From positions 3,193 to 67,192 of the forward strand of contig JAGVZT010000001.1 of assembly GCA_018302335.1 (NCBI GenBank): DNA of 64,000 nucleotides. Reading direction: 5' to 3'. Below, in pieces: positions 10,793-56,141 of this stretch (positions are counted from its first letter, which is position 1; each line of letters begins with the position of its first letter). This DNA comes from Candidatus Woesearchaeota archaeon. GTDB lineage: Archaea > Nanobdellota > Nanobdellia > Woesearchaeales > JAGVZT01. Position numbers and translations under genes: made by a program. Below the pieces are notes generated by a model. That model saw nothing but the letters and a program-made list of their open reading frames with translations. It searched no databases and was not told where the DNA came from.

Positions 10793-10956
10793 GGAAGGAG
10801 GGTGCCGGCTGCCAATAAAAAGCTTGCGTCCTGCGCGAGTGGAAGATGAGCGCTTCCTCGGCCGGAAGGCCGTACGGTATCCGGGTGGTCTCGCCGGAAT
10901 CCCGGACACGCTCCCCAGCGCGGCCGACTCTGCCTTTCACTGAGCCGTCCGGCGCG

Positions 10957-12168: not shown

Positions 12169-12223
12169 GCCGCCTTCCAGCCGGAGGTGGCATATAAAGC
12201 TTACCGCCCGGAAAGTCCCCATC

Positions 12224-12283
12224 GGCCGCATTGCCGCGCGCTTTCCGCGCTGTCGTGATTCCGCGCTCAGCAACGCGGCCGGC
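12224..12283 (+). repeat. hairpin-forming intergenic element, divergent copy E of the dispersed family
   Basis: cggccgcattgccgcgcg...cgcgctcagcaacgcggccgg: imperfect inverted repeat sharing the CGGCCGCATTGC terminal motif with copies at 20757, 37031, 45414, 46371 and 54607. Confidence 0.5.
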
Positions 12284-13301: not shown

Positions 13302-13507
13302 GCTGTTCCGTGACGCGGCCGAGATTTTAAGCGTTGCGCCGGACGCCGGGGAAAACATACCCGTTCGGCCGTGCTGCTGGGAATTTCCGGCATGACGAGA
13401 CCCCCGGGACTTCCGCGTCACTGCGGCCGGCATTTCATGAAGTTCAGCGCTGCCGACGGGAAAACTATTTAAACCACGGCAGGACGGGCTCAGGCGAGGT
13501 GGCGCTC

Positions 13508-14763
<1,256 letters not shown>

Positions 14764-20756: not shown

Positions 20757-20805
20757 TCGGCCGCATTGCGGACAATGTCCGGGATTCCGGCCATGCGGCG
20801 CGCGG
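20757..20805 (+). repeat. hairpin-forming intergenic element, copy A
   Basis: cggccgcattgcggacaatgtccgggattccggccatgcggcgcgcgg, immediately after the pyrD stop. Confidence 0.55.
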
Positions 20806-20863
20806 CACCGAGAAGATTTTTGGCGGCACAACCTTTAAATGCACCCGCGCCCGGGGAGGAGCG

Positions 20864-27414: not shown

Positions 27415-28172
27415 GCCCTCAGCGCCTCCAGCGCCCGGCTGGCGTGCTCCGCCTGCCGGGACTGGCCGTCGTATTCGACCATCACCCATCCTTTGTAGCC
27501 TGAATAGGCGAGAGTGCCAAGCACGCGGGGAATGTCCAGCTGGCCCTCGCCCAGCGGCCGGAACTCTCCTGACGCGTAGTCCTTGAGGTGCACATAGCCG
27601 ATGCGTCCGGCATGCCGCTTGACCACCTGCGCGGGGTCCATCCCCGCGAGGGCGAGATGCGCGGTGTCCGGGCAGAGCAACACCGCTTTAGGGTCGGTGA
27701 GTGACAGCACCTTCTCGATGCTCTGCTCGTCGTAGACCAGGCAGCCCTGGTGGGGATGGAGCGCGAGGGTCACCGCATGGGGCCAGGCAGCCTGCGCCAT
27801 GGCATCGAGCGTCTTCGCCATCTCCTCTAGCTCCTGCGGCAGCGACTGCAGCTGTCCCCCGCCAACGACCAGTGTGCTCCCACCGAGGCGTTCGAGCAGT
27901 CCCGCGGCTCTCGCGGCGTTCTCGACATGGAGGCTTCGCTGGCCAGGATGGCCGAGCGCGCCATCGTAGTAGAGAGAGGCGAGCGTCATGCGGTGCGAAG
28001 ACAAATGCTCCTCGAGGTCCAGAAGCCGGAAGTCGTCCCACTGCGCGATGTCCGCGAAGCTCTCCGTGCCCGCATATCCCAGCGCGGAGAGGTCGCTGAT
28101 GGCGGTGAAGAGTCCCTGGCCCCAGTTCCAGCTGAGAGAATGGTACCCGACAGGCATGCCGAAGCGTTCCAT
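27411..28172 (-). CDS. sugar phosphate isomerase/epimerase (xylose-isomerase-like TIM barrel)
   Basis: 253 aa from MERFGMPVGYHSLSW with typical HLAL and GYVHLKD motifs. TATA gcttataag about 35 bp upstream. Confidence 0.8.
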   Translation of the reverse strand: MERFGMPVGYHSLSWNWGQGLFTAISDLSALGYAGTESFADIAQWDDFRLLDLEEHLSSHRMTLASLYYDGALGHPGQRSLHVENAARAAGLLERLGGSTLVVGGGQLQSLPQELEEMAKTLDAMAQAAWPHAVTLALHPHQGCLVYDEQSIEKVLSLTDPKAVLLCPDTAHLALAGMDPAQVVKRHAGRIGYVHLKDYASGEFRPLGEGQLDIPRVLGTLAYSGYKGWVMVEYDGQSRQAEHASRALEALRA

Positions 28173-28248
28173 ACAATCCCCCCGGCCGGGAGAAGGCCTC
28201 ACCGCTTATAAGCATTAAGGTTATTAACCTCGCCGTAAAGAGACAGGC

Positions 28249-28416: not shown

Positions 28417-28576
28417 GCGCTCGCGCCGCAAAAAGGGAGTATCTTTCGGTCGCCATGCTGGGCAATATCCAGGTTGTCTCGTAGGAATACCGGATATCCT
28501 CAGCAACGCGGCCGATCTCCCCCTCTAAAAGACAGTCGGCACAAGATATTTATGCTCGCTCATGCCGAAAGGCGCG

Positions 28577-35881: not shown

Positions 35882-36342
35882 GGGCGCACCTCGATTGCCC
35901 CTGCGTCCGGATAGCCCTGCCTTCGGCCCTGGCCGGCGAAGGGCGTCAGGCCCGTGCCGTCCCGCAGCAGCAGCGCGTTGAGCGCGTGCTTCCGCGCGCG
36001 GTCCAGCGCGATTTCCGCCTGGCGCCGCTCGTCCCCGGGCGCCTCGCTCTCATGGAAGAAGACCTTGAGGATGTGCTTGCCCTCCTGGACCTCGGCCATG
36101 ATGAGACCGATGTTCGCCTCGTGCGCGCAGCGCTCGTCGATATCCTTGCCTCCTACCCACCCCAGGGCGATGACCAGGTCGCAGCCCTGCTCCCGGAGGA
36201 GCCGCACCGAGGCTGCGGGAAGGTCCTTCATCCCCGGGACCGTGTAGCGGGAGAGCTCCACGGTCGCGCTGCGGAGCGCATCTATGGCCTCTGCTGCCAT
36301 GTCCACGCGCGCGAAGGTGGTGTCTGCGATGCCTATTTTCAT
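35878..36342 (-). CDS. ribC: riboflavin synthase, archaeal type (lumazine-synthase-like fold)
   Basis: 154 aa MKIGIADTTFARVDMA..., resembling the MJ1184-type archaeal riboflavin synthase; sits between ribH and rbkR. Confidence 0.7.
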   Translation of the reverse strand: MKIGIADTTFARVDMAAEAIDALRSATVELSRYTVPGMKDLPAASVRLLREQGCDLVIALGWVGGKDIDERCAHEANIGLIMAEVQEGKHILKVFFHESEAPGDERRQAEIALDRARKHALNALLLRDGTGLTPFAGQGRRQGYPDAGAIEVRP

Positions 36343-36974
36343 GGGGACACCTCCACTGTCTGGCCATCCTTCAGGTTGAGCGCCTTCCTGAGGAAGACAG
36401 GCGCGATGAGCTCAAGAGTGTCCCTCTTGTGCGCAGTCCGGTCCGGAACGAGCGCTGCGCCATGCACCCTGCGCTGGATGCTCAGGGGGTAGCAGTGCAC
36501 CGCTCCGTAGGTGCGCTGGCTGGTGGAGAACCCGTCGACGGTGACTTTCCGCAGGGGGGAGAGGAAGCGGCGAGCGTCCTCTTCGCGGACCTGGAGGTTG
36601 AGCGTCCCGGGATAGGGCGTGAAGCCCAGCGCCTTTGCGATGCGGCTGCTGTACACCTTCACGTAGAAGGCCCCTTCTCCGAGGCCGCTGGCCACCTTGC
36701 CGGCGAGGGCGGGGGTCTTCCGGTCAAGAAGCCCCTCGAGGCGGCCCTTCTCCTCGCGCAGCGTGGACCAGCCCTGCTCGGTCAGGGAGAGCTGCTGGCC
36801 CTGCGAGGCGAGCTTGCGCGCGATGAGGCCGCGCTCCTCCATCGCGCGGATGTGGCGCGAGGCGCTCTGCTGGGAGACTCCCCAGAGTATGCCCAGCTCC
36901 GCCGTCGATACCGGCTTCTGCCCGTGAGCGAGAAGCTCCGCCAGCAGGCGGAGCTCGATGTATATCCCCCCCAT
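36339..36974 (-). CDS. rbkR: RbkR: winged-HTH regulator fused to CTP-dependent riboflavin kinase
   Basis: N-terminal HTH (VSTAELGILWGVSQQSASRHIRAMEERGLI) plus C-terminal archaeal riboflavin kinase domain (GTLNLQV...PLRKVTVDGF...HGAALVPDRTAHKRDTLELIAP). First gene of the rib operon. Confidence 0.75.
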   Translation of the reverse strand: MGGIYIELRLLAELLAHGQKPVSTAELGILWGVSQQSASRHIRAMEERGLIARKLASQGQQLSLTEQGWSTLREEKGRLEGLLDRKTPALAGKVASGLGEGAFYVKVYSSRIAKALGFTPYPGTLNLQVREEDARRFLSPLRKVTVDGFSTSQRTYGAVHCYPLSIQRRVHGAALVPDRTAHKRDTLELIAPVFLRKALNLKDGQTVEVSP

Positions 36975-37030: not shown

Positions 37031-37100
37031 GCGGCCGCATTGCAGGGAATATCCGGCATTCCTGTGAGGCCATCCGGAGCCCCTGCGGCATTCCGGCCGG
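37031..37100 (+). repeat. hairpin-forming intergenic element, copy B
   Basis: gcggccgcattgcagggaatatccggcattcctgtgagg...cctgcggcattccggccggg, between the rib promoter and the next minus-strand ORF. Confidence 0.55.
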
Positions 37101-43812: not shown

Positions 43813-44787
43813 TCACCTCTCGAGCTCGCTGAGCTTCTCCTCGAACTCGTAGAGGTCGCGCACGACATGCGGCTCCTTCCGGTAGCCGCGCCGGTCGATG
43901 AGGAAGGCGTGCATACCGGCCGCGGTGGGCACCGCATAGTCGCGCTCCGCGTCGTCCCCGAGGTGGCACACCTCCTCGGGCAGAACTCCGAGTTCCTCGC
44001 ATAATTCCCGGCACACCGCCGGGGTGATGACCATCTTCCTGAAGTCGGATGAGACGCTGTACACCCGGAGGAACCGCTTCTGCATCTTTCCGGCCGAGAG
44101 CTTGATGTCCAGCATCTTGCGCTCGGCGTGGGTGAGGAGGACCAGGTGATATCTCCGGGAAAGGCGCTCGAGCGTCGGCTGCACGTCCGGGTAGAGGGTG
44201 ATGTCCTTCCTCAGCCCGCAGATGAGGGTCTCGAACGTCGTTTTCAGCCGGAAATGCTTTATCCAGAAATCCGGGTCGCGCCATGCGCGGACCTTGCCCC
44301 ACAGTCTCCGGTATTCACCCGTGACGATGGAGAAAGCCTTCTCCTTGGTGACCCTGTACTGCTTCGCGTACGCGTTCGGGAATTCCCGCCTCCAGAGCAG
44401 CTCGTCAAACTGCGTGTCGAACAGGGTGTCGTCCATGTCGAGGCACAGGACCTTGATGCGTCTGCTCCTGAACAGGGGTTTCCTGCGCTCGAGCTCGTGC
44501 AGCATGCGGTCGCGTTCCTTCAGCCTCCCCCGCGCGGACGCGACGAAGGACTCCATCTCGCCAAGCCAATCCTCGTCGATGCTGTATTCAAGACGGTCTT
44601 TCCGGAGCTGTCCCTGCTCGCGCATGTGTTGCAGCTTCTTGTGCACCGCCTGGTAGCTCACCGAGATGCCGCACCGCGAGCGGACCTTGTAGTAGATCTG
44701 GCGCGCGGTGAGAGGCTGAGCGAGCAGCAGCACGTCGAGCATCGCCCCTCCGAGACCCTCCGGCTGCATCGCGTCCGCTCCGGCCAT
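43813..44787 (-). CDS. winged-helix DNA-binding domain fused to HAD-superfamily hydrolase
   Basis: N-terminal wHTH (LTARQIYYKVRSRCGISVSYQAVHKKLQHMREQGQL) and C-terminal HAD motifs (LCLDMDDTLFD motif I, LVLLTHAERK, GDDAERD). Confidence 0.7.
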   Translation of the reverse strand: MAGADAMQPEGLGGAMLDVLLLAQPLTARQIYYKVRSRCGISVSYQAVHKKLQHMREQGQLRKDRLEYSIDEDWLGEMESFVASARGRLKERDRMLHELERRKPLFRSRRIKVLCLDMDDTLFDTQFDELLWRREFPNAYAKQYRVTKEKAFSIVTGEYRRLWGKVRAWRDPDFWIKHFRLKTTFETLICGLRKDITLYPDVQPTLERLSRRYHLVLLTHAERKMLDIKLSAGKMQKRFLRVYSVSSDFRKMVITPAVCRELCEELGVLPEEVCHLGDDAERDYAVPTAAGMHAFLIDRRGYRKEPHVVRDLYEFEEKLSELER

Positions 44788-44807
44788 GCCGGAGGGGAAG
44801 CGCCCGG

Positions 44808-44849
44808 GGTATAAGAATCTTCGGATGAAATCAACCAGATGGTTGATTT
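44808..44849 (+). promoter_or_regulatory. shared divergent promoter with a perfect 10-bp-arm palindrome (candidate Lrp operator)
   Basis: gggtataagaatc TATA box followed by AAATCAACCA-GA-TGGTTGATTT (44828-44849), about 55 bp upstream of the lrp-family gene's ATG. Confidence 0.5.
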
Positions 44850-44905
44850 ACTGCAAGGGTAGGTTCATCATCCACCCCGCATTCTCCGGAAGCAGAGGTG
44901 GGAAC

Positions 44906-45385
44906 ATGTCACAGAAAAGAGATGCGTTGCAGAAAAGAGATTTGCTCATCGTGTGCAACCTGCGCCAGAACGCGCGGGAGACGCTCACGAGGATGAGCCG
45001 CAAGACCAACATTCCGATCAGCACCATCTACGACCGGCTGAAGCACCATGAGCGGGACCTCATCACCAGGCACACTTCGCTCATCGACTTCGCGAAGCTG
45101 GGATACTCCACGCGTGCTATTGTCCTGCTGTCGGTCGCGCGCGAGCAGCGCGATGCGCTCCGCGATTATCTCGCCACGCATCACAGCGTGAACACCCTCA
45201 TCAAGATCAACGACGAGTACGATTATCTCGCGGAGCTCATCTGCAAGCAGATACGTGACATCGAGGAGTTCATGGAGCGCACCGAGGAGCGCTTCAGGGT
45301 GAAAAGGAAGAAGGTCTACTACGTCACGGACGAGGTGAAGCGCGAGGGATTCCTCAGCGACCCCAAGCTGGTCAGTATGCTGTGA
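44906..45385 (+). CDS. Lrp/AsnC-family transcriptional regulator
   Basis: 159 aa from MSQKRDALQKRDLLIVCNLRQNARETLTRMSRKTNIPISTIYDRLKH (HTH) with a C-terminal RAM domain (AIVLLSV...NTLIKINDEYDYLAELICK). SD AGAGGTGGG 4-5 nt upstream. Confidence 0.8.
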   Translation: MSQKRDALQKRDLLIVCNLRQNARETLTRMSRKTNIPISTIYDRLKHHERDLITRHTSLIDFAKLGYSTRAIVLLSVAREQRDALRDYLATHHSVNTLIKINDEYDYLAELICKQIRDIEEFMERTEERFRVKRKKVYYVTDEVKREGFLSDPKLVSML

Positions 45386-45413
45386 ATGGGGATGGCTCTG
45401 GGAGCGCACACGA

Positions 45414-45490
45414 CGGCCGCACTGCGAAGAATTTCCGGGATTCCTGCGAGACAGACCGGAACTTGCACGGGATTCCGGCCTGGATACGGA
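45414..45490 (+). repeat. hairpin-forming intergenic element, copy D
   Basis: cggccgcactgcgaagaatttccgggattcctgcgagacagaccggaacttgcacgggattccggcc, downstream of the lrp-family gene. Confidence 0.55.
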
Positions 45491-45649
45491 AGATTTCCTG
45501 CAGAGTCGCGGGAGATTGCCCATTTTTAAACAAGATGGAAATAGCGAGTATATCCCCTTAAAATAAACAAAAGCACCTATACCACCAAATTTACTCCCGA
45601 AATATTCAAATAGGGGTTGGCTCTACCCCCGGAGAAGCGGGTGAGATCG

Positions 45650-46363
45650 ATGTACCTGAAGCAGAAGGGCAACCGGTGCGGTCTGTACTCGTATTACAAC
45701 CTTGCCAACGAGCTCCACCTCCCGACGAGGGCTGAGATACGCCGCATCCTTTCGGAACGGGAGTTGTGTGTGGCGAACTATCGCTTCTATCCCGGGCAGG
45801 GACTCTATCCGGAGCAGCTTGCCATGGTCATCTCGGAGCACCTCCCCAAGGGATACGATGCGCATCTCATCAGCAACGACTGGAACATCTTCCCGCCCAA
45901 CTGCAACGCCAGAGAGGTCAGGAAGCACCTGGAAAAGATTCTCCGCCACAAGGGCTCGTTCCGGGAGACGCATGCGAAGCGCCAGGCGAAGAGCTATCTC
46001 GAGCTGATGCGGAAGTGGAAATGGAAGATCACCACCGAGCAGATCACCCTTGACGTGCTGGAGCGGCGGACCGACCGCGCGCCGCTGCTCGCGAGCTGCC
46101 TTCCGATGCTGCTGCACCCGCAGATGCGCCGGGGCAAGGATTTCCTGCGCACCGCGCGCGCCCTCCGCTGGGACCCCGAGCGGGAGGACAGCCACTTCTT
46201 CGTCGTAGGACGTGCGACGCGCCATGAGTTCAAGGTCATCGACTCCAGCACCTGCTCAGGTGAACGCTGCAGCTGGCGCATCACGAAGAAGGATGTGCAC
46301 GCGAGCATCGCGATGGACGACCAGCCGACGCTCATCCAGATCGTGCCGCGGCGGACTCCGTAA
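45650..46363 (+). CDS. hypothetical protein (237 aa), possibly a papain-like Cys/His peptidase fold
   Basis: MYLKQKGNRCGLYSYYNLANEL... has a conserved Cys near the N-terminus and a His (EDSHFFVVG) later. Assignment is speculative. The TTG-start track ORF is extended; ATG 45650 is preferred (SD GGTGAG). Confidence 0.5.
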   Translation: MYLKQKGNRCGLYSYYNLANELHLPTRAEIRRILSERELCVANYRFYPGQGLYPEQLAMVISEHLPKGYDAHLISNDWNIFPPNCNAREVRKHLEKILRHKGSFRETHAKRQAKSYLELMRKWKWKITTEQITLDVLERRTDRAPLLASCLPMLLHPQMRRGKDFLRTARALRWDPEREDSHFFVVGRATRHEFKVIDSSTCSGERCSWRITKKDVHASIAMDDQPTLIQIVPRRTP

Positions 46364-46370
46364 GGACAAT

Positions 46371-46438
46371 CGGCCGCATTGCGGAGAATGTCCGTCATTC
46401 CGGTGAGACAACCCGGATATTGCGCGGCATTGCGGCCG
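46371..46438 (+). repeat. hairpin-forming intergenic element, copy C (most complete, with terminal inverted repeats)
   Basis: cggccgcattgcggagaatgtccgtcattccggtgagacaacccggatattgcgcggcattgcggccgag. The ends CGGCCGCATTGCGG and CGGCATTGCGGCCG are near reverse complements. Confidence 0.6.
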
Positions 46439-46500: not shown

Positions 46501-48666
46501 ATGAGGCGCGCGGGCATCCTCCTTGCATTCCTGCTCCTCGCGGGAAGCGCGGCCGCCGACTGCCGCGTGCTGAACGCCGACATCTTCCTCGCCGGAGACG
46601 TGGCGGACTGCTACATCGTCAATGCCCCGCTGCGCATCGATGGCCGCAACCACACCCTCATCGGCAGGGGGGGCATCGGCATCGACAACCGGGCGGGCCA
46701 CGGCCTGACTGTCGAGAACCTGCGGCTCACCAACGTCACGGTGGGGCTCTGGGCCAGGGGGATGCGCTTCTCCCTCCTGGATTCCATCCTGGTGGAGACG
46801 CTCGACGCGCCGAACAGCTACGGCGTCGTGCTCGAACAGAGCGAGGAGAACCTCCTCCAGCACAGCTCCATCGTGACGCGCGGGGCGTGGGGGCACGGCA
46901 TCGCCGTCTCCGGGGGGAGAAACAACCGCGTCCTCAACACCTCGGTGCGCACCCTGGGCCAGAGTGCGCATGGCGTGTTCATTCTGAGCTCGCGCGGGAA
47001 CCGCTTTGACGACCTCTCGATTGCTGCGCACGGCGACTCCATCGTGCTCGACCGCTCAAGCGGCAATCTCTTCGCCGGTGGAAGCGCAAGCGGCCAGGAG
47101 GCGCTCCTCGTCCTGCCGGGCTCCGCAGGAAACCGGCTGGAGGATGTCTCCCTTGATGGCCTGTCTCTCTCGGTGCATGAGATTGCCTCTCGCGCGCTCT
47201 ACCGCGATGTCACGGCGGTGCTGAAGCCAGGTCTCGTCGAGCTCACCACCGCGCTCGGGGTGCGGGAGCTCGGACAGGGCCTGGTGGACTTCTCTCTCGG
47301 CTATGAGGACACCCTCCGAGTCATGGAAGCAACCATCACCCTCTTTCAGTATGACCCCGCGCGTGGCGCGTGGTATGCCCTCTCCAATGAGCTGGACAGC
47401 GTGGGCAACACGGTCCGCTCGGGCAATCTCAGCTCTCCCGGGCTCTTTGTCCTGCTCGGTGAGGCCCCGCAGCCGGACCTCAGCGGGGTCTACCTTCCGG
47501 TCCGGGTCATCGGCGGACTGGACGTCGAGGTGTTCCTGAGCGGCCGCCGCGCTCCTGTCTTCCTCCGCCGGATGGAGAATGCATCCATCGTCATGACCAT
47601 CACCGAGGAGCAGAGGGAGCGGCTCGCGAACCGCAGCGGAGCGGCGTCTGACGGCTATGCCGTCCCGGGCTCGAGCGTGGAAATCATCAGGGAGCAGGGT
47701 GATGCTCCCGCAGAAAGCGAGGCCAGCGGGATGGAGAGCTATTTCGTTCCGACCGCCGGGAGGGACAACCAGACCGCCGCCAATCTCACCGGCAGTACGG
47801 AGCGTGCGGGCGCTTTCCCCTGGGTCGCGCTCCTGGCAATCGGAGCGGTCGTCACGGGCCTGCTCTACGCCGTGCTCCGGCGGAGCCGCGTGCGCGCGTC
47901 CTGGGATGACGCAGGTTCTGCGGACGCCGCGACGCTGGAAGGCGCTTCGACCGCGGAGAGCGCGCTGGAGCTCATGGCGGTCGAGGGGTCGCGCGACATA
48001 CTCGTCATGCAGGAAGGCCGTGCGCTTGGCATCCTCATGCGGCGCACCGTCGTCCGCGAGGTGGCTGCCGGACGGGACCCTCGGAGCATCCATGTCCGGG
48101 AGCTCGTCAGGCCGGTCCAGTCCGTGTCACCCGGTGCCTCCATGCGGGCTGTCCTGCGCATCGCCGTCCGGCAGGCTGCAACTCCCGTCCGGCGCGGGAG
48201 TGCAATCACCGGAGTACTGAGCAGGAGCGAGTTTCTCCGGCAGGTGGTGGAGATGCTGTCGCGCAGGCAGTTCCGACCCGGCGAGATTCCCTCAGCCAGC
48301 CAGGCGAGGGTCTACAACTACCTGACAGCCGACGGAAGCCAGCCGATGGGCACCCTTGTGGAGAAGATGGTGCAGGAGACGGCGGACTGCATCCTGGTGA
48401 TGGACGATGCGCATGTCACGGGCATCATCACGGACCGTGATATCCTCAAGGAGTACCTGCGAAGCCCCTCGGGGCTCCGGTCCGCCCTTGCGGAGCACAT
48501 CATGTGCAAGGGCGTGCTCACTGTCCAGAGCGCCGACACCGCGCTCCAGGCCGCCAGGGAACTGGTCGCGAGCGGAGTGCGCCGCGCCCCTGTCCTCTAC
48601 AAGGGGAAAGTGGTGGGAATCGTCACCGAGCGTTCCCTGTTGGTGGCACTCGATAGGCTGCTGTGA
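46501..48666 (+). CDS. membrane protein with extracellular right-handed beta-helix (pectate-lyase/NosD-like) domain and two cytoplasmic CBS pairs
   Basis: Signal MRRAGILLAFLLLAGSAAA; repeated NxxG/beta-helix rungs (GIGIDNRAGHGLTVENLRLTNVTVGL, GIAVSGGRNNRVLNTSV...); TM helix AFPWVALLAIGAVVTGLLYAVL; then four CBS motifs. TATA gggtttatatatg centred about 26 bp upstream (leaderless). Confidence 0.75.
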   Translation: MRRAGILLAFLLLAGSAAADCRVLNADIFLAGDVADCYIVNAPLRIDGRNHTLIGRGGIGIDNRAGHGLTVENLRLTNVTVGLWARGMRFSLLDSILVETLDAPNSYGVVLEQSEENLLQHSSIVTRGAWGHGIAVSGGRNNRVLNTSVRTLGQSAHGVFILSSRGNRFDDLSIAAHGDSIVLDRSSGNLFAGGSASGQEALLVLPGSAGNRLEDVSLDGLSLSVHEIASRALYRDVTAVLKPGLVELTTALGVRELGQGLVDFSLGYEDTLRVMEATITLFQYDPARGAWYALSNELDSVGNTVRSGNLSSPGLFVLLGEAPQPDLSGVYLPVRVIGGLDVEVFLSGRRAPVFLRRMENASIVMTITEEQRERLANRSGAASDGYAVPGSSVEIIREQGDAPAESEASGMESYFVPTAGRDNQTAANLTGSTERAGAFPWVALLAIGAVVTGLLYAVLRRSRVRASWDDAGSADAATLEGASTAESALELMAVEGSRDILVMQEGRALGILMRRTVVREVAAGRDPRSIHVRELVRPVQSVSPGASMRAVLRIAVRQAATPVRRGSAITGVLSRSEFLRQVVEMLSRRQFRPGEIPSASQARVYNYLTADGSQPMGTLVEKMVQETADCILVMDDAHVTGIITDRDILKEYLRSPSGLRSALAEHIMCKGVLTVQSADTALQAARELVASGVRRAPVLYKGKVVGIVTERSLLVALDRLL

Positions 48667-48764
48667 ATCCAGCGGGACGCGATGACGCGCGCTGCGTTGT
48701 CTCGCAGTGATTCGTTCTCAGCATCAGGCTGTCTCCATACTTTTCCTGCAACGCCCTGCCGACA

Positions 48765-48774
48765 CGTTTAAAAA
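48765..48774 (+). promoter_or_regulatory. TATA box for tRNA-Glu
   Basis: gtttaaaaag about 30 bp upstream of the mature tRNA 5-prime end. Confidence 0.55.
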
Positions 48775-48798
48775 GCACCTGCGCTTCCGCCACGGCAC

Positions 48799-48873
48799 GC
48801 CCTGGTGGTGTAGTCCGGTCAATCATTCCGCCCTCTCGAGGCGGAGACCCGGGTTCAAATCCCGGCCGGGGCA
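48799..48873 (+). tRNA. tRNA-Glu (anticodon CUC)
   Basis: GCCCTGG TG GTGTAGTCCGGTCAATCAT TCCGCC CTCTCGA GGCGGA GACCC GGGTTCAAATCCCGG CCGGGGC A closely matches archaeal tRNA-Glu (GUGUAGUCCGG.CAAUCAU; T-arm GGGUUCAAAUCCC). Anticodon loop is CU-CUC-GA. No CCA encoded. Confidence 0.9.
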
Positions 48874-48879
48874 TACCTA

Positions 48880-48887
48880 GTTTTTCT
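48880..48887 (+). terminator. oligo-T archaeal terminator after tRNA-Glu
   Basis: tttttctt seven nucleotides after the tRNA 3-prime end. Confidence 0.55.
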
Positions 48888-49028
48888 TACAAAGAAGGGC
48901 ATAACTCCGCAGCGCCACAACGCAAGAGATTGCTAACAGAACATCCTAACCAGGGTTATAGGTTCTGCTGCTGGATGATGAGTTACTTTAAATAACTTTA
49001 AATACTTTAAGTCATTATTGGTTAAAGT

Positions 49029-50405
49029 ATGGAACAGAGCCTTTTCAAGGAGCTTGCCGCACTGGATGAGGGCGCCTCGCTTGAATTCAAGCGGTCCCTT
49101 TCTGATTCCGACAAGATATGCCAGACAATCTGCGCCTTTGCCAACACCACGGGCGGCCTCGTCGTCTTCGGCATACAGAAGCAGGGAAGAAAGCCTATCT
49201 TCGCCGGGATAGGAGATACGGACGCAGCGCAGAGGGAACTCCAGAACTGGATTCACAACAATCTCAGGCCGCAGCTCCGCTACAGCCTTGACACCGCCCG
49301 CTTGGAAGGCAGGCAGTTCGTGCTGCTCACCATCGAGCCGCTTCCCCTCTCCGAGATATGCTCGTTCAAGCATGGCGTCTGGCGGAGGTCGGGCTCTGCG
49401 AATATCGAGCTTTCAGGGGAGCATCTCGTCACCTTCCTGCGCGAGAGGGGCATGCTGTCCTTTGAGGAGCTGCACTCCCCTGCCCGCCTGGGGGACATGG
49501 ATACCGGGAAGATTAGGAATCTCCTCCGTGCGAGGCGCGTCGTGCCGGAAGAGCATGAGCCAATCAACTACCGGACAGTCCTTGAGAGCATGGGTGTTGC
49601 GGTCACCCTTGACAGGTTCATCCTCAAGAAGTCCGCACCCCTCTTCTTCGCGAAGGATGTATCGAAATTCCAGCCCAACTGCGAAGTCAGGATTGTAAGG
49701 TTCCGGGGCGGCGAGCATACCCTCGAGGCGAAGGATGAGGACAAACGGCATGTGGACACGATACCGGAACTCCTGCGGACGGCATTCGATGCTATCATCC
49801 GGATGGTCGGTGCAGTTTCTGCCATCAAGCACGGCCAGAGGGCCGACATCCCCGCCCTCCCCGCTGAGGTGGTCAGAGAGGCGCTGACCAATGCGGTCGG
49901 CCATCGCGATTATATCGACCCCAATGGGATTCTCGTGGAGGTATATGACGACAGGCTGCAGATTACGAATCCTGGCAGCCTGCTCTCCGGCCAGACCATC
50001 AAGAACTTTGCTGACACAAGGCGCCACCGCAACCCTACTGTGCACAGGCTGCTGAATGATGCTGGCTGGGGGGAAGGCCTGTACTTCGGCATCAAGCTGA
50101 TGTACCGCAAGATGCGGGAGGGTGGCTTTCCCGACCCCGAGTTCCAGGACCTGGGCGGCTATTTCAGGGTTGTCCTTCACACTGCACGGTCGCACAGGAA
50201 GCGGAAACCGATGGATGTGGTGAACGAGCGCCAGGCGAAGGCGATAGCCTACCTGGAGAGGCACAAGTCAATCCGCACCAGCGAGTATGCACGCATCGTA
50301 GAAGTCTCCACCGTCACAGCAGTGAAGGACCTCAACGAGCTCGTCCGGCAGGGAAGGCTGAAGAAAGTTGGGACATACCGCGGCGCCCACTACACGAAGT
50401 CGTAG
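49029..50405 (+). CDS. AlbA_2 (Schlafen-like DNA-binding) plus HATPase_c_4 (RecG-C-terminal-like) domain protein with C-terminal wHTH
   Basis: N-terminal EGASLEFKRSL...ICAFANTTGGLVVFGI (AlbA_2 signature), central REALTNAVGHRDY...ITNPG (HATPase_c_4) and a C-terminal HTH. Lower-GC flank with repeated ACTTTAAATA upstream; immediately downstream of tRNA-Glu. Confidence 0.75.
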   Translation: MEQSLFKELAALDEGASLEFKRSLSDSDKICQTICAFANTTGGLVVFGIQKQGRKPIFAGIGDTDAAQRELQNWIHNNLRPQLRYSLDTARLEGRQFVLLTIEPLPLSEICSFKHGVWRRSGSANIELSGEHLVTFLRERGMLSFEELHSPARLGDMDTGKIRNLLRARRVVPEEHEPINYRTVLESMGVAVTLDRFILKKSAPLFFAKDVSKFQPNCEVRIVRFRGGEHTLEAKDEDKRHVDTIPELLRTAFDAIIRMVGAVSAIKHGQRADIPALPAEVVREALTNAVGHRDYIDPNGILVEVYDDRLQITNPGSLLSGQTIKNFADTRRHRNPTVHRLLNDAGWGEGLYFGIKLMYRKMREGGFPDPEFQDLGGYFRVVLHTARSHRKRKPMDVVNERQAKAIAYLERHKSIRTSEYARIVEVSTVTAVKDLNELVRQGRLKKVGTYRGAHYTKS

Positions 50406-50564
50406 GTTGCTTTAAGGATTTTAAGCCTTAAAGTTCTTGGAGTAAGTTAAAGTGCTGTGAGCCATCGGCTGAAACGACATACACTCCTGGGAAAGTGAAT
50501 CCCTAACCTAACTTCGTAAACAGAACATCCTAAACTTATGTTAGTAATCCCGGCCGGGGCATAC

Positions 50565-50981
50565 TCACAGGTCCTTCAGATATGCCTCCGTGAGGGTGCG
50601 GATGAGTTTCTGGATTCCTTCAGCGTGCTCCGCCACTTCCGCTACGGAAATGTTCTGACCATAGTAGTTGATCCGGTTCCTGATGCGTCTGAAGCGGTCA
50701 TACTTTTCTGCTGCCAGCGACTCGCCCTTCTCCTTGAGATAGAAGGTGAACGCCTCATGGGAATAGACCTTGTAGCCATCCAGCACGGCCATTGCCTCTA
50801 CGATGGCTCTCAAGGTGTCGTAGTAATTGCTCATCATCTTGCGCGCGGCCTTTTCGTCCAGGGGGACGGTATCGAGGAACGCCAGGTCCTCGTGTGCGGT
50901 GGTCAGAAGCGATCTTGCGAGCTGGACGTCGCGGGATGATTTCCTGACAGAGCCGCTCTTCAGGAAATCCGAGAACGTCAC
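50565..50981 (-). CDS. HEPN-domain protein (putative toxin of a HEPN/MNT pair)
   Basis: 138-aa all-helical protein with the C-terminal R..RN..NYYG region typical of the HEPN superfamily. ATGA overlap with the upstream MNT gene, the canonical MNT-HEPN arrangement. Confidence 0.55.
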   Translation of the reverse strand: MTFSDFLKSGSVRKSSRDVQLARSLLTTAHEDLAFLDTVPLDEKAARKMMSNYYDTLRAIVEAMAVLDGYKVYSHEAFTFYLKEKGESLAAEKYDRFRRIRNRINYYGQNISVAEVAEHAEGIQKLIRTLTEAYLKDL

Positions 50982-51520
50982 AAGAAGACCTCCCAGAAAC
51001 CATGGAGCACCACGCCATTCACGAAATTGTTCAGCAACTCCATATTCTGGTCCTTCAGTCTGTCAATCTCCTGCCTGGAATGCACGAACAACTGAATTTC
51101 CTGGCCTATCTTCTTCTCGAAGGCCGAAACATCAGCAGTCCTCTTCGCGGGAGTGATAATAAGCAGGTCGACATCGCTCTGCGGGGTGCTCTCGCCTTTC
51201 CTGCATGAACCGAAGAGCACGATGGCCTCAGGATTGTTGAATCGGTCAATCAGGTAATCAATGAGTCCGGAGGACCACAGCTGCTCAATGTGGAAGCAGA
51301 GTTTCCGGTGACGATAAAGGGGATTCTGGGCATTTGCCCTGAATACCTGTGCCTGGAGCCTTTTCTCACGGACCAGAAGTCCCTGCCTCTCCAGGCTGCG
51401 AAGGTACTTCGAGGCTGTCGTTGGAGAGATGCCCAGTCTCAGCGCAAGGTTACGTACATGGAACTCGGTCCCGGGATCGCGGAGGAAGGTTTCGAGCAGC
51501 CTGTTGTGGTTTCTGTCCAT
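50978..51520 (-). CDS. minimal nucleotidyltransferase (MNT) with N-terminal wHTH
   Basis: LFGSCRKGESTPQSDVDLLI is the GS-x9-DxD nucleotidyltransferase signature; the N-terminal HVRNLALRLGISPTTASKYLRSLERQGLL is a wHTH. Confidence 0.7.
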   Translation of the reverse strand: MDRNHNRLLETFLRDPGTEFHVRNLALRLGISPTTASKYLRSLERQGLLVREKRLQAQVFRANAQNPLYRHRKLCFHIEQLWSSGLIDYLIDRFNNPEAIVLFGSCRKGESTPQSDVDLLIITPAKRTADVSAFEKKIGQEIQLFVHSRQEIDRLKDQNMELLNNFVNGVVLHGFWEVFL

Positions 51521-51546
51521 TTTTTAGGGTAACTGTTCATCTTGTT

Positions 51547-51567
51547 GGACAGTTGTCCATATAAATG
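51547..51567 (-). promoter_or_regulatory. palindrome GGACA-GT-TGTCC abutting a TATA box upstream of the HTH-MNT gene
   Basis: ggacagttgtccatataaatg on the plus strand; on the coding strand it reads catttatatgGACAACTGTCC, about 30-45 bp upstream of ATG 51520. A likely autoregulatory operator. Confidence 0.4.
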
Positions 51568-51692
51568 TTTTGGTCTCTGAGGCGCCCATTGCTGGGGTCG
51601 GCGGTGAACTCGGATTCCGGTCGGGGCATGGTTCACCGCCGTGGACACCAGGCAGCGCAATAGTTAATAAGCACCGTCCCCGACTGAGCGGC

Positions 51693-51848
51693 ATGACCAA
51701 GAGAACACTGGCATCGTACGAGAAGCCGTTGCCGAGGCAGGTCAAGAGGAGCACGGAAGGGACATGCCCCTATTGCCACAAGCATGTCCAGGCCCTGGAG
51801 CTTCATATCCATGACAAGCACCTGCGGGAAAAGCGGGTCAGGCGCTGA
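51693..51848 (+). CDS. 51-aa C2H2-type zinc-finger mini-protein
   Basis: MTKRTLASYEKPLPRQVKRSTEGTCPYCHKHVQALELHIHDKHLREKRVRR has CxxC-x12-HxxxH. TATA gttaataagc centred 26 bp upstream of the ATG (leaderless). The track ORF is longer (from 51570). Confidence 0.45.
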   Translation: MTKRTLASYEKPLPRQVKRSTEGTCPYCHKHVQALELHIHDKHLREKRVRR

Positions 51849-51928
51849 ACGCGAGCTCATCCCGTGCCGGTCCCCGCTGTCGATGGAAACTCTCCTGGAA
51901 ACCCTTAAGAACCCGGCCGATTCCATGA

Positions 51929-52669
51929 GTGGCATCTTGGACAGGAATGCATGAGACCATCGTCGCGGTGGCGGACAGCGCGGTCCGCATCCTTTCCCCG
52001 TGGAAGCTGGACCTCTCACGCTACTACGAGACTGCGGAATCGTCCGAGCTGAGCATCATCTTGCAGGACGCGGACAGCTATTCCGCGGTGTTCGAGCCTC
52101 CATACCGGGAGCTGCGCTGCTCCACTCCAGGGAACCTGGAGCAACTGGCGCGGCAGCTGGCGCTCTATCTCGGCTGCTTCCACTCGGAGCGCTACCAGGC
52201 GGTGCACGGTTGCGGACTCGTCGCGGATGGAGCCGGGATCCTCTTCTCCGGCAATTCCGGCTCCGGGAAATCGCTCATGCGCGAGCTGCACCCCCGTGCG
52301 CAGGTCCTCGATGATGATATCCTGATGCTGGATACGCTCGGGGGGAGGATGCTGGTGACAGGAAAGCGCGGGACCGTGACCGATGAAGTGGAGACGGCCC
52401 GCATCCTGGTCGAGCCTCGAAGTCCGCTGCGCGAGGCAACGCTCGACCTTGTGGTGCTGCTGGACAGCGCGCTGCCGAGCGGACATCTGGAGCGGAGAGA
52501 GGCGATTCCCAGGAGCTATGCGAAGCTGGACGCCCTGCCGGACGTGCTGCAGTCGGCCTACTGCGCGCTGCCGGACATAGAGAGCACGGTTCCGGTGCAT
52601 CTACTGGGAACGAAAGGAAAGCGGAGGGAGCTGCTCGCTGAGGCAGTGCGCTCCCTCATGTCGCGTTGA
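51929..52669 (+). CDS. P-loop protein resembling the HPr-kinase/phosphorylase C-terminal domain
   Basis: GCGLVADGAGILFSGNSGSGKS resembles the HprK-C pattern [24 protein letters not shown]. No further assignment. Confidence 0.5.
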   Translation: MASWTGMHETIVAVADSAVRILSPWKLDLSRYYETAESSELSIILQDADSYSAVFEPPYRELRCSTPGNLEQLARQLALYLGCFHSERYQAVHGCGLVADGAGILFSGNSGSGKSLMRELHPRAQVLDDDILMLDTLGGRMLVTGKRGTVTDEVETARILVEPRSPLREATLDLVVLLDSALPSGHLERREAIPRSYAKLDALPDVLQSAYCALPDIESTVPVHLLGTKGKRRELLAEAVRSLMSR

Positions 52670-54581
52670 GTATCTCCTTCCGCAGGCGCTCAATCTCCTT
52701 CAGGAGCAGCTGTCTCGTCGGGCCCGCAGAGCCCTTGTACAGCTCGTTCGCGAGATGGTAGAGCTCCTTCACTCCGGGCTCGCGGGAGCGGACTCTCCGG
52801 GAGATTTCCTCCGAGATGGCCCGCGCCAGGCTCACCGCGTCCGCCGCTGCCGAGGCCGCCGCGCTGTTGTACCGCTCGAGTTGCTTCCTCACCGCGTCAG
52901 GTGCGCCTTCCACCGAGACAGCGCCGCCGACCTGCGAAAGGGTAATCCGCTTGGCCGGTTCCGGGCGCTTCTGCCGGGAGAGCTCCTCCTCCCTCTTCCG
53001 GAGCGCGGCTTTCAGCGAGGCTACCTCCTGCTCGTTCTTCGGCATGCTAGCCTGGGCGGAGCGCGCAGCTCGCTGCAGCTGCGCTTTCTTCTTCTCGAGG
53101 GATGGCAGCGCGGCGTTGAGGGCGACCAGCCGCTCCCGAAGACGGGCCTGCTGTGCCCGGAGAGCTGCGCTCTGCTGGGCAAGCCGTTCCTTCAGTACCT
53201 GCAGCTTCCGCACCTCGGCGTGTGCCGAGCGTAAGACGGTATCCTGTCGGGAGACCAGCGCGCCCTGGGCCTGGGCGCGCCGTGAGGCGTCCGCTTCCTT
53301 CTTCCGAAGCGCCGAGACTGATGAGCCTAGAGCCCTTTCCCGGCCGCGCAGGGATGCGATATGCGAGAGAGCGGAGTGTGCCTTGCGTTTCTCGGCCGAG
53401 GCCGCCGCGAGGGCGGCACGATGCCTGCGCTCCATCGCGGTCAGCCTGTGGCGGAGCGAGGTCAGGAGGGCTTTCCCCTTCGTGAAATCCCGAGAGGAGC
53501 GGAGAGCCGCATTGCGCTGAGATGCAAGCTCGCGCCGCAGTGCGTCCAGCTCGCTCTGTTTCTGCGCGGCCTTCTTCTCGACCGACGCTGCGTCCTTGCG
53601 CTCCATGCGGGCCGCGGAGGCGTTCTGCCGCATCTGTGCCCTGGTCTCCTTCAGCCGGGCTTCCATCTGGACAAGGCGCTCCTGGCGCTCGTTGAGCATG
53701 GTCCGCGCGTGCTTCAGGTCCTGGCCGGCGCTGACCAGCGCGGCATTCCGGCCGTCGACGGCACGCCTCGCCGCGGAGAGCTTGTTGGATAGCTCCTTCC
53801 GCTTGGCTTCGAGGGATGCAAGGCGCTGATGCTCGTCCGTCTCCTCCTTGCGTGCGGCGAGGAGCTGCTGTCTGGCCTCCTCGAGGGAAAGACGGAGCTT
53901 CTCTTTCTCCTTCCGGAGCCTGTCCGCGTCGGTGGCGAGCTGGGCGTGATGCCGCTCGGCATCCTTCAGGGACTCTTCCTGTGCGGCGATGTGCGCCCGC
54001 AAGGATGACTCCTCTTGCTTGAGTCGCTCATCCTTCTCCTCATGGCGCTGGCCGAGCACATGGAGCTTCTCGCGCGCTGAGCCGAGCTCCTTCTGCAGGG
54101 CGGCGAGCGCGGCCTTCTTTTCGGAGAGATCCTTCTCCGCTGAGTCCGTCTGCTTGGATGCGGAGAGGAACTCCTTCTCCCGAGCATCCGTGCGCTTCTG
54201 CAGCCCCTCGGATTTCCTCTTCAGGCCGGCAATCCGGCGCTCGAGGCGCTGCTCCTCATCGCGGGAAGCGGCCATCTGCTCCCCGAGTGCCGCAAGCTGT
54301 GCTTCCTCGCGGCGCTTCTCCTCCTGGAACGCCGACTTCTGCCCGGCAAGCGCCTTCTCCTTCCTGGCAAGCGCTTCGTCCAGCGCGGAGAGGCGCTGCT
54401 GCTTCTCGTCCTTCTCCCGCTCCAGGCGCCTGATATGCGCCTCCCGGGAGGAGAGCTCCTTCTGCAGGCCGTCAATCTCGCGCGTGACCGAGGACAGGTA
54501 CTCCTCCAGAACCCGGACGTCGCCCTCGATGAGAGAGTGCATCTCCTTGAAACTCTCGAGCGGGCCCGGCATGCCTCCCAC
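52656..54581 (-). CDS. 641-aa coiled-coil protein (SMC/myosin-tail-like heptad repeats)
   Basis: More than 500 aa of continuous E/K/R/A/L/Q-rich heptads (LQKELSSREAHIRRLEREKDEKQQRLSAL...). Short non-coiled N- and C-termini. GTG start. Confidence 0.7.
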   Translation of the reverse strand: MGGMPGPLESFKEMHSLIEGDVRVLEEYLSSVTREIDGLQKELSSREAHIRRLEREKDEKQQRLSALDEALARKEKALAGQKSAFQEEKRREEAQLAALGEQMAASRDEEQRLERRIAGLKRKSEGLQKRTDAREKEFLSASKQTDSAEKDLSEKKAALAALQKELGSAREKLHVLGQRHEEKDERLKQEESSLRAHIAAQEESLKDAERHHAQLATDADRLRKEKEKLRLSLEEARQQLLAARKEETDEHQRLASLEAKRKELSNKLSAARRAVDGRNAALVSAGQDLKHARTMLNERQERLVQMEARLKETRAQMRQNASAARMERKDAASVEKKAAQKQSELDALRRELASQRNAALRSSRDFTKGKALLTSLRHRLTAMERRHRAALAAASAEKRKAHSALSHIASLRGRERALGSSVSALRKKEADASRRAQAQGALVSRQDTVLRSAHAEVRKLQVLKERLAQQSAALRAQQARLRERLVALNAALPSLEKKKAQLQRAARSAQASMPKNEQEVASLKAALRKREEELSRQKRPEPAKRITLSQVGGAVSVEGAPDAVRKQLERYNSAAASAAADAVSLARAISEEISRRVRSREPGVKELYHLANELYKGSAGPTRQLLLKEIERLRKEILNAT

Positions 54582-54606: not shown

Positions 54607-54668
54607 TCTCAGCAGCCGGCCGCGATACCGTGCGACGCCGGCATGCCGGACATTCTCCGCAAAGCGGC
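54607..54668 (-). repeat. hairpin-forming intergenic element, copy G (reverse orientation)
   Basis: rc of 54640-54668 is gcggccgctttgcggagaatgtccgg..., matching copy C. Lies between two co-directional genes of the minus-strand operon. Confidence 0.55.
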
Positions 54669-54671
54669 CGC

Positions 54672-56141
54672 TCAGCGCTTCTCGACTTGCAGCCCGGCGA
54701 GCTCCACGGCGCCGGGACGCGTTTCCGCGAGATAGAGATTGACCCAGGGATTCTGCTCGTCGGCGTAGCTCCAGCGCGATGACACCGCTCGGAGCCACTC
54801 CCCTACCATCTGGTCGCCGGCCTTCTCGATGAACGCGATGGCCTCCCCGGTGGACCGGTAGCGCACCACGTCAGGGTCCTGGTCCTGCATCCTGGACAGA
54901 AGGTCGAAGAGCACCGGGTCCTTGCGCACCGGATAGACCATGGAGAGCTTGACATCTCCTGAGCATGAGGAGAAGTGCCCGTATGCTGCAGCTTCATCCC
55001 TGGCGCCCTCGATGGCTGCGATTGCCTCCTCCAATTCCCGCACAGTCTCCGGAGCCCGGGCGCTGTCCACCCGCCTGAAGAGGTCGGAGACGCTCGCGGC
55101 GCTCTTGAGGTCCCCTGCCTCAGCCTGGCGCGCGGCTCGGCGGAGGGTCTGGAGCCGTTCCCTGCCGGCAGAGGCAGAGTAGAAGAGGAAGCCCTCCCGG
55201 ATGAGCGCGTCGAGAAGGTCATCGGTCTCTCTGCCGTTCACGACGGCATACTGTTCGGTGCGGCGGCTCTCGCCGTTCCCTGCGCCGTGCTGGAAGTAAA
55301 CCATGAGCGGCTTCGTCCCGGTGAGAGAATACAGGTCCATGCTGTCTCCGCGGAGTTTGTAGCTCGCAGATTGCATCTTCACCGGGAATACCCCGTCCGG
55401 CCGGATGAGCCTCAGGTTCCCCAGGCCCGGGCGGCTGCCCTCTGCGCCGTACTTGAGGGTGAAGGCGTCCAGCACGGCCTGCTGCGTCTCCGCGGAGAGG
55501 ATGGAGCGGTAGTCCTCTTTCGCGTCCTGCACCACGCGATGGAGCTTCGCGAACGCCTCGAGGGCGCGAGTCGGAGTCTCGAGGGTCACCGAGAGGGAGA
55601 GACCTCCCTCGCCGAGCATTGCCGACGCGATGAGCGCCGTGGGGGTCAGCGCGGGCCCCGTGACTCTTCCGTAGAGCGCCTCTCCGAGGGTCACCTGCTG
55701 GATGAGCGGGCCCGCCTTCGCATGCACCTCGCTGAGGAGCTGCTCCATGAAGGAGAACTCGTCGCTGATGATGTCGCATTCCCGCTGCTGCGGGGAGACG
55801 ATGATGAGCCAGTCGTCGAGATCATAGCCCAGGGCGCTGCCCCCCTTGTCGATGCGGAAGCTCTCGTCCGCGACCTCTCGGCCGAGGATGTCCTGGAGCG
55901 CGGCTCGGTATCTCTCGGCGTCGCGCCCGGTGAGGGTGAGCAGACGCTTGTCGGGTATGAGCAGCACGCTGTCTTCCACGTGCTCGCGGGAGTTGAGGTA
56001 GCGCTTGCGCAGGTGCTTACCCGCGATGTCCTGCAGGATATTCCTTCCTGCTGGAGGGACAGCGCCGGCAGGCTTGCTTGCCTCCTTCTTCGTGCGCAGG
56101 CTGCGCGCGTACTCTCCCAGGTCGCTAGGCTTCCGCGTCAT
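54672..56141 (-). CDS. hypothetical protein (489 aa)
   Basis: Clean ORF; 4-bp overlap with the upstream AAA ATPase gene. No domain recognised. Confidence 0.6.
   Translation of the reverse strand: MTRKPSDLGEYARSLRTKKEASKPAGAVPPAGRNILQDIAGKHLRKRYLNSREHVEDSVLLIPDKRLLTLTGRDAERYRAALQDILGREVADESFRIDKGGSALGYDLDDWLIIVSPQQRECDIISDEFSFMEQLLSEVHAKAGPLIQQVTLGEALYGRVTGPALTPTALIASAMLGEGGLSLSVTLETPTRALEAFAKLHRVVQDAKEDYRSILSAETQQAVLDAFTLKYGAEGSRPGLGNLRLIRPDGVFPVKMQSASYKLRGDSMDLYSLTGTKPLMVYFQHGAGNGESRRTEQYAVVNGRETDDLLDALIREGFLFYSASAGRERLQTLRRAARQAEAGDLKSAASVSDLFRRVDSARAPETVRELEEAIAAIEGARDEAAAYGHFSSCSGDVKLSMVYPVRKDPVLFDLLSRMQDQDPDVVRYRSTGEAIAFIEKAGDQMVGEWLRAVSSRWSYADEQNPWVNLYLAETRPGAVELAGLQVEKR

Follow-up and report, generated by a model that had tools for sequence, protein, structure and literature searches.

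Locus and copies of the repeat

The intergenic element at positions 46371-46438 (+) of the window, i.e. the whole stretch of 64,000 nucleotides of Candidatus Woesearchaeota DNA that was analysed, is a full-length (68 nt) member of a dispersed repeat family and, with a covariance model (CM) score of 86.1 bits, the best copy in the window. Its sequence is CGGCCGCATTGCGGAGAATGTCCGTCATTCCGGTGAGACAACCCGGATATTGCGCGGCATTGCGGCCG. Its 5' end is 7 nt past the stop codon of gene 45617-46363, and some 31 nt separate its 3' end from the TATA-like box of gene 46501-48666. By its Cys/His motifs the product of gene 45617-46363 looks like a C39-type peptidase. The G+C content of the window is 65%, and two stretches of lower G+C are seen in it (44000-46400 and 48000-52000, 0.55-0.60 versus 0.65). 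The first of them holds genes 44786-45385 and 45617-46363, both with no Pfam match, and the two best-conserved copies of the repeat separate and follow these genes.

Exactly 10 non-overlapping copies were found in the window with an nhmmer profile built from the copies listed in the initial annotation, and an unfiltered covariance model run on both strands returned the identical set. The initial annotation had counted at least six copies. All six listed ones are real and lie at or within a few bases of the positions given for them; copies 6272, 10859 and 28447 had been missed, and what had been described as a fragment (13377-13393) is actually part of a full copy, 13366-13430. The 31-nt 5' motif that all copies were said to share occurs in the window at five sites with up to 3 mismatches (0 in 100 dinucleotide shuffles). 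One CM match within a gene (16229-16283, E = 0.04) is devoid of any family box and was taken as chance.

Full length was also noted for four other copies of the window. The copy at 45414-45481 (+, CM 76.7 bits) is located 28 nt past the stop codon of gene 44786-45385 and is followed by GGAAGATTTCC and then by the TATA box of gene 45617. The copy at 37032-37099 (+, CM 78.8 bits) is antisense to its neighbours on both sides, the gene for riboflavin kinase, 36339-36974(-), on one and a small ORF with tRNA-His(-) on the other. The riboflavin kinase encoded in the window is the CTP-dependent one, an archaeal enzyme. The copy at 28447-28514 (-, nhmmer E = 3.6e-12, CM 71.5 bits) occupies a divergent spacer between genes 27411-28202(-) and 28562-31219(+). 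No Pfam match was obtained for the latter gene. A unit of about 171 nt (57 aa) is repeated six times in tandem at 29515-30540, longer duplications also occur inside the gene, and its product is probably a repeat-domain surface protein. The copy at 10859-10926 (-, found with nhmmer, CM 73.6 bits) begins 30 nt past the stop codon of the Na+/H+ exchanger gene (-), with the TATA box of the next (-) gene downstream.

The other copies are shortened or degenerate. The copy at 12223-12282 has an internal deletion and belongs to the minus strand (39.9 bits on minus versus 22.8 on plus), not to the orientation in which it had been listed at 12224. It is placed between a DeoC-like gene, with its stop codon at 12447, and the Na+/H+ exchanger gene, with its TATA box and a start at about 12168; read on the minus strand, it is followed by GGGGACTTTCC and then by the TATA box of the exchanger gene. 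The copy at 13366-13430 (+, CM 47.5 bits), with a deficit of 4 nt, lies in the divergent spacer between DeoC(-) and SAHH(+, start 13508). The copy at 20758-20813 (+, nhmmer E = 1.3e-9, CM 26.8 bits) is internally deleted with its first 34 nt or so intact, and it is located 3 nt past the stop codon of a pyrD-like gene and upstream of the TATA box of a P-type ATPase gene. The copy at 54617-54670 (-, CM 45.3 bits) has lost 14 nt internally; it begins 1 nt past the stop codon of gene 54672-56141(-), and the TATA box of gene 52656-54581(-) follows downstream. Finally, a degenerate copy with recognisable ends is found at 6272-6337 (+, nhmmer E = 0.002, CM 26.2 bits with E = 0.009), upstream of gene 6416-7756(+).

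Distribution of the family

When further contigs of this organism from metagenomes (NCBI label Candidatus Woesearchaeota; obtained by a pattern scan of JGI metagenomes and by retrieval via flanking proteins) were added, the number of distinct copies rose to 33 in about 170 kb of DNA, the window included. A stricter pattern gave 15 loci in the JGI metagenomes. Three of these are the organism of the window (99.6-99.8% identity) and the remaining ones are other regions, with a maximum of six or seven copies per 13 kb. The proteins of the window occur only on metagenome contigs; the 90% cluster of its SAHH includes an NCBI protein assigned to 'Candidatus Woesearchaeota archaeon', and the LonB of locus L056 bears this label too. 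An exact-pattern scan of 185,579 GTDB species representatives (one genome each), which did not return the window itself, produced only 47 single matches in unrelated bacteria, i.e. chance level, and 0 copies were present in the viral contigs scanned. With Rfam only two tRNAs were found in the window at the gathering score, the elements had no match at E ≤ 5, and loci L056, L060 and L063 were also free of any match. In the literature searched on small palindromic repeats nothing was found on this 68-nt family, and no description of small dispersed palindromes in DPANN- or Woesearchaeota-type genomes was encountered.

Anatomy of the element

The length of the element is 68 ± 1 nt in approximately two-thirds of the 33 copies, the others being internally deleted. 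Its boundaries are sharp and its ends are imperfect inverted repeats of 12-14 nt (5' CGGCCGCAYTGC, 3' GCATTSCGGCCG); inverted repeats had been described in the initial annotation for the fuller copies. The outer 6 bp are paired in 17-20 of 20 full-length copies and the pairing at positions 7-12 is less regular. When conservation was scored on copies not ascertained through the scan pattern, near-invariant blocks were recognised in the 5' part (CGGCCG at 1-6, TGC at 10-12, GAG at 14-16, T19, CCGG at 22-25 and AT at 27-28) and in the 3' part (GAGAC at 35-39, CGGA at 44-47, CGG at 55-57 and CGGCCG at 63-68), while positions 8-9, 13, 20-21, 26, 29 and 48-54 vary freely. Mirror symmetry of the two arms is confined to about 14 nt and the inner CCGG; the inner parts (GAGAATNT versus the variable 48-54) are not mutually inverted. 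The element is as rich in G+C as the genome. The idea that the CGGCCG ends are restriction sites was rejected, with 70 occurrences counted in the window and 69 expected.

In the immediate flanks there is a preference for T at -1 and for a purine at +1. A weak, short T-rich patch is present at +13 to +17 past the 3' end (T in 15 of 23 copies at +13, binomial P = 3e-6), and because it accompanies the element in every gene context, the unit probably extends to about 85 nt. The 3' tail was also considered as a degenerate copy of the internal GAGAATNTCCG box and this was rejected for the family as a whole (P = 0.30); a strong match of the tail to the box is seen in three copies (45414, 12223 and L056_2376).

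Position relative to genes

All 33 distinct copies are intergenic, on both strands and in every kind of spacer, and none lies in a coding region, as had been claimed for the copies first listed. Intergenic DNA constitutes about 9% of the window (9.2% of bases) and 10 of 10 copies are located there (P ~ 4e-11), where they account for about 11% of the intergenic bases. Between tandem genes, 12 copies are sense and begin 1-35 nt past the co-oriented stop codon of the upstream gene and 6 are antisense, a bias which is not significant (P = 0.24); 12 of the 33 copies occupy divergent spacers and 2 convergent ones, with one copy at a contig end left unclassified and two more at contig ends provisionally placed by their single visible neighbour. 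To the earlier statement that the copies lie mostly right after stop codons a correction applies: copies 37032, 13366, 28447 and 6272 have no preceding co-oriented stop codon.

In about three quarters of the classifiable copies the 3' end faces a gene start. The distance from the 3' end to the TATA box ranges from 15 to more than 200 nt, is often 30-42 nt, and is not phased; for elements followed by a promoter it is 15-42 nt, with 30-37 nt the commonest. TTTAWA boxes are found 25-30 nt before start codons in the window, and since the TATA box is absent where a gene end follows the element, the promoter is that of the gene and not a part of the repeat. No functional theme is shared by the flanking genes, which are ordinary housekeeping genes. 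At locus L075 (16867-19928), just past where the window ends on the right, a closely spaced run of five adjacent paralogous genes (202-207 aa) belonging to no Pfam family was noticed. They are part of a long, co-directional cluster, which also includes a ThiF-family gene. The cluster contains 0 copies of the repeat, and one weak copy is present at L075 21048, approximately 1.1 kb downstream of it.

Age of the family, strains and relatives

Pairwise identity of the copies is 70% on average (57-87%) and identity to the consensus 80%. No two copies are more than 87% identical, thus there is no sign of recent activity. The variable columns are linked (summed mutual information 48.3 versus 42.9 ± 1.3 after permutation, P < 0.001), which means that the copies form subfamilies related by descent; positions 26-29, where GATTCC, CATGCC and AATGC alternate, are an example.

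Among strains 99.0-99.9% identical no presence/absence polymorphism was found, every copy being at the same place. Variable positions between strains amount to 4.3% in the elements versus 0.69% in their surroundings, and this faster change is due to an 11-nt indel polymorphism in copy 12223 and to the replacement of the 5' half of copy 13366. In strains about 99.5% identical elsewhere, this half is exchanged for a version that differs at approximately 15 positions, and no identical donor of gene conversion for it is present in the sampled DNA.

The nearest relatives in databases are 73-79% identical in SAHH and 75% in LonB, with none between these values and 98%. Their syntenic stretches of 12-22 kb hold 0 copies, compared with five and eight in the matching stretches of the focal genome. 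Orthologous spacers which carry a copy in the focal genome are about 100 nt longer there than in a relative (201 versus 93 nt and 139 versus 40 nt), and a spacer without a focal copy is of similar length in both (104 versus 109 nt); the comparison is one of lengths, the intergenic DNA of the relatives being too diverged to align with the focal spacers. In three relatives an AsnC/Lrp-family gene is situated between the DeoC-like gene and SAHH. This gene is missing here, and a 180-nt spacer (13300-13508) holds copy 13366 in its place.

Tests of mobility

A search for target-site duplications (k = 2-8) gave none at any offset, as counts did not exceed those of permuted flank pairings. It should be mentioned that the flanking repeats of MITEs may erode in old copies (PMC10969869). 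No related autonomous element or solo end was found in about 170 kb of the DNA of the organism, and in the window and the loci (genome fragments, about 170 kb) there is neither a transposase gene sharing the ends of the element nor a RAYT (Y1/HUH) gene. Gene 45617-46363 was examined as a partner transposase and rejected, with no Pfam match and no HUH motif.

Two IS elements, IS4/5-like and rve-type, were seen. Their ends are unrelated to the repeat and both of these ordinary elements moved in strain comparisons in which the repeat copies stayed fixed. In the strain contigs L070 (1-183) and L073 (1-117), the DNA left of window position 12204 is replaced by the 3' end of an IS4/IS5-type DDE transposase gene, with the motif Y-x2-R-x3-E-x6-K at the C-terminus of its product; the junction is 18 nt past copy 12223, before the TATA box of the Na+/H+ exchanger gene. 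The rve-type (integrase-core) IS is polymorphic, about 940 nt long and located at L078 18030-18968, with empty sites at L081 12336-12351 and in L056. Its inverted ends include GTGACATATGTCA, its target duplication is 16 nt long (CTGCAGAACCGTTGGG), and it sits 29 nt past a partial repeat copy, upstream of an ABC1 kinase gene.

Comparison with known repeat systems

MITEs are defined as multicopy, intergenic, non-coding elements shorter than 500 bp, with terminal inverted repeats of 4-30 bp and a capability of forming a stem-loop, which are moved by an enzyme acting in trans; in archaea they are known from Sulfolobus (SM1-SM4), Haloquadratum and Halobacterium (PMC10969869). The repeat described here resembles them as a 68-nt, non-coding, multicopy and intergenic unit in which terminal inverted repeats surround a unique core and a stem-loop can be formed. 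In contrast to MITEs, it has no flanking direct repeats, no parent IS with the same ends in the approximately 170 kb seen and no recent or polymorphic insertions, it is not A+T-rich, and it falls at the very small end of the size range.

REP, BIME and REPIN sequences, such as E. coli REP and the REPIN-RAYT system of Pseudomonas, are short extragenic imperfect palindromes (PMC3116915, PMC3337134, PMC3733652, PMC12306157), and REP-like palindromes have been reported generically from archaeal genomes (PMC12306157). Several features are shared with this group: the family is high-copy, strictly extragenic and of the same G+C content as the genome, it is present on both strands and often just past stop codons inside operons, it is old and vertically inherited in the lineage with a subfamily ('population') structure and no target-site duplication, and its copies are hotspots for local rearrangement and nearby IS insertion. 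However, the unit measures 68 nt rather than 20-40 nt and does not consist of two full inverted REPs, its ends are CGGC...GCCG without the GTAG or CGTC tag (criterion of PMC3733652), no RAYT gene is present in the approximately 170 kb seen, and the host is a DPANN-type archaeon. As it fails defining tests of both REPs and MITEs, the family is filed as REP/MITE-like and as a member of neither group.

Dispersed intergenic repeats with inverted ends also include ERIC, Correia/NEMIS, the CIR of Caulobacter and RUP/BOX/SPRITE of pneumococcus. Such repeats can be co-transcribed with flanking genes, and some, like CIR, are strictly intergenic (PMC10969869). Unlike the present element, all of these are 100-240 bp long; sequence similarity to them is absent, and none of the TA duplications (Correia), promoters or IHF sites (several of them) or the terminator role (SPRITE) was found here.

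Origin of the family

On balance it seems probable, if only just, that the repeats constitute a lineage-specific, old and non-autonomous palindromic family of the REP/MITE type, small and non-coding. The family would have multiplied by copying into the intergenic DNA of one archaeal lineage after its split from the nearest sampled relatives. We infer an enzyme supplied in trans that did the copying and that read the inverted ends together with internal boxes; a transposase or a REP-associated (RAYT-like) enzyme may be proposed. The exclusion of copies from genes, irrespective of strand and type of spacer, and the greater length of spacers that hold a copy fit this history. Only the insertions that broke neither a gene nor a promoter would have survived, and such survival would explain why copies are found in the gap from a stop codon to the following TATA box or else with divergent promoters on either side. 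The family is now old and, over the time in which the strains diverged, practically immobile; its copies drift, undergo internal deletions and seem to trade sequence among themselves. The existence of the family, its anatomy, its confinement to intergenic DNA, its subfamilies, its absence from relatives and its fixation among strains are established by the data, and the copying mechanism and the enzyme are a matter of inference. The miniature mobile element suggested in the initial annotation is compatible with the sharp ends, inverted termini, strictly intergenic location, subfamilies and absence from relatives, but a MITE in the strict sense is not supported, as no target-site duplication, partner IS or strain polymorphism was found. 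A REP/MITE-type repeat could also, possibly, have been retained as a protein-binding site. It has to be counted against the reading as a mobile repeat that the near-invariant boxes and the preserved length could reflect selection by the host instead.

Alternative explanations

The last point leads to a rather unlikely, nevertheless substantial alternative, in which the element is a double-stranded DNA site maintained by the host for an architectural or regulatory purpose, with a sequence-specific protein contacting boxes about one helical turn apart. The binder might be a protein of the nucleoid or Lrp type, or a transposase that was domesticated, the sites would be kept upstream of promoters genome-wide, and a mobile origin would be possible but no longer relevant. 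A protein-binding site reused throughout the genome had been among the candidates of the initial annotation, and the sharp boundaries, inverted ends, intergenic location, subfamilies and absence in relatives are compatible with it. Position-specific conservation of the boxes in copies not picked by the scan pattern, the length of exactly 68 nt kept in most copies despite 20% mean divergence from the consensus, the fixation of all copies among strains and the absence of a strand or RNA signal all agree with such a site, as does the orientation of the 3' end toward a gene start, often at 30-42 nt from the TATA box; the wide and unphased spread of these distances, however, does not. The conservation profile has its period peak at 10.5 nt (P = 0.03 in the 9.5-11.5 band), but the test was post hoc and is not significant over all periods (P = 0.23). 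It also speaks against this alternative that flanking genes have no common functional theme, that subfamily linkage indicates descent by copying and not convergent sites, and that the nearest relatives run the same syntenic genes without the element.

A bolder form of this proposal is still less likely. According to it, the repeat is not decaying junk but a maintained, protein-bound element, the archaeal counterpart of the bacterial REP/BIME-RAYT symbiosis, in which a single-copy domesticated enzyme or nucleoid protein would read the boxes one helical turn apart on about 85 bp upstream of promoters. If true, this would be a first for a DPANN-type archaeon, with about 10% of the scarce intergenic DNA devoted to it.

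A role at the RNA level appears improbable. Here the element would act as a 3'-UTR hairpin that shields the upstream mRNA from 3' exonucleases, or as a helper of termination together with the T-rich patch. Such a role is rated low, since one copy in three is at a site without transcript ends and since no mark of a functional strand is found. It is suggested by the 12 copies past co-oriented stop codons, by the enrichment of T past the 3' end and by the folding of individual copies. The focal copy folds into a long hairpin of -34.2 kcal/mol as RNA (z = -3.2) and -18.1 kcal/mol as DNA, and for single copies the folds exceed those of shuffles in stability, both as RNA (z from -0.6 to -3.5) and as DNA. 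Nevertheless, the opposite strand folds about equally well. Over 20 full-length copies the long hairpin is paired at 78.9%, as against 77.7% in column shuffles, and RNAalifold retains only six outer pairs, A8-U62 and the inner CCG/CGG stem. The palindrome is a property of the consensus and is not maintained copy by copy. The hairpin-forming capacity noted in the initial annotation holds for the focal copy, but family-wide the complementarity is consistent only in the outer 6-8 bp and the inner CCG/CGG stem.

Compensatory covariation is absent (the RNAalifold covariation term of +0.44 is unfavourable), as is any strand asymmetry between G-U and A-C mismatches (31 versus 34 overall and 13 versus 16 in the core stems), and with neither of the two present, neither strand has the look of an RNA under selection. 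A different inner stem, in which TTCCGG pairs with CCGGAA, was poorer than the long hairpin and showed no covariation. A second hairpin or terminator in the 24 nt past the element was rejected as well (-3.08 versus -3.14 kcal/mol in shuffles). The T patch is short, is situated 13 nt off the stem and occurs also in promoter-only contexts, no U-tract abuts the hairpin, and an Rfam family match is lacking. With 12 of 33 copies in divergent spacers, 6 antisense in tandem spacers and no significant orientation bias, the terminating or mRNA-stabilising hairpin listed among the first candidates is not supported as an explanation of the family, and a mobile element or a reused binding site is the better reading. 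For the preferred REP/MITE-type repeat, a palindrome inherited from the source copy and unselected in RNA would be expected to exhibit neither pairing constraint nor strand signal.

Integron attC sites have RYYYAAC...GTTRRRY cores arranged as R''/L''...L'/R' and occur in cassette arrays beside an integrase. The repeat is similar to them as an imperfect palindrome (attC sites are 57-141 nt long) placed directly past the stop codon of a co-oriented gene, in contrast to them it has no R''/R' cores, cassette arrays or integron integrase, one third of its copies lie in divergent promoter regions and its flanking genes are housekeeping genes. That the copies are attC-like recombination sites bounding gene cassettes, e.g. 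gene 45617-46363 or the Na+/H+ exchanger inserted between direct copies, is very improbable indeed. Several genes absent from the synteny of relatives do lie between copies (the exchanger, with 12223(-) and 10859(-) on its two sides, and the peptidase-like gene, with 45414(+) and 46371(+)) or in blocks flanked by or ending with a copy (radical-SAM and YidD blocks of L078), and many copies begin right past a stop codon. But with a copy every 3-6 kb, chance alone would give such flanking, LonB is flanked likewise although it is syntenic in a relative, the orientations relative to the flanked genes are mixed, no cassette arrays or integrase exist in the window and the ends have no RYYYAAC/GTTRRRY cores.

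Significance

REPs, REPINs and MITEs are well studied in bacteria and poorly characterised in archaea. In the compact genome described here, about 11% of the intergenic DNA belongs to a single family that is lineage-restricted and old, yet still sharply defined. It can be used as a strain and lineage marker, and it provides a warning for annotation, as such hairpins are not terminators or sRNA genes. It also offers a tractable case for asking whether archaea hold partnerships of the REP-RAYT kind. Current concepts are unchanged unless a dedicated binding protein or enzyme turns up.

Other strain-variable features of the window

Two further differences between strains were noticed near the focal copy. 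Gene 46501-48666, which encodes a NosD/beta-helix and CBS protein, carries a 93-nt in-frame strain indel (47852-47942): the window has these bases, and strain contig L051 does not. An insert of 1.67 kb with low G+C (48877-50545, region 48799-50564), for which L051 has the empty site, adjoins the 3' end of tRNA-Glu(ctc). It contains one gene (49029-50405, Schlafen AlbA_2 + HATPase_c_4 + HTH) and has a 19-nt direct repeat, AATCCCGGCCGGGGCATAC, at its borders. As there is no integrase within it, the insert is regarded as a small strain-variable island, possibly related to defence.
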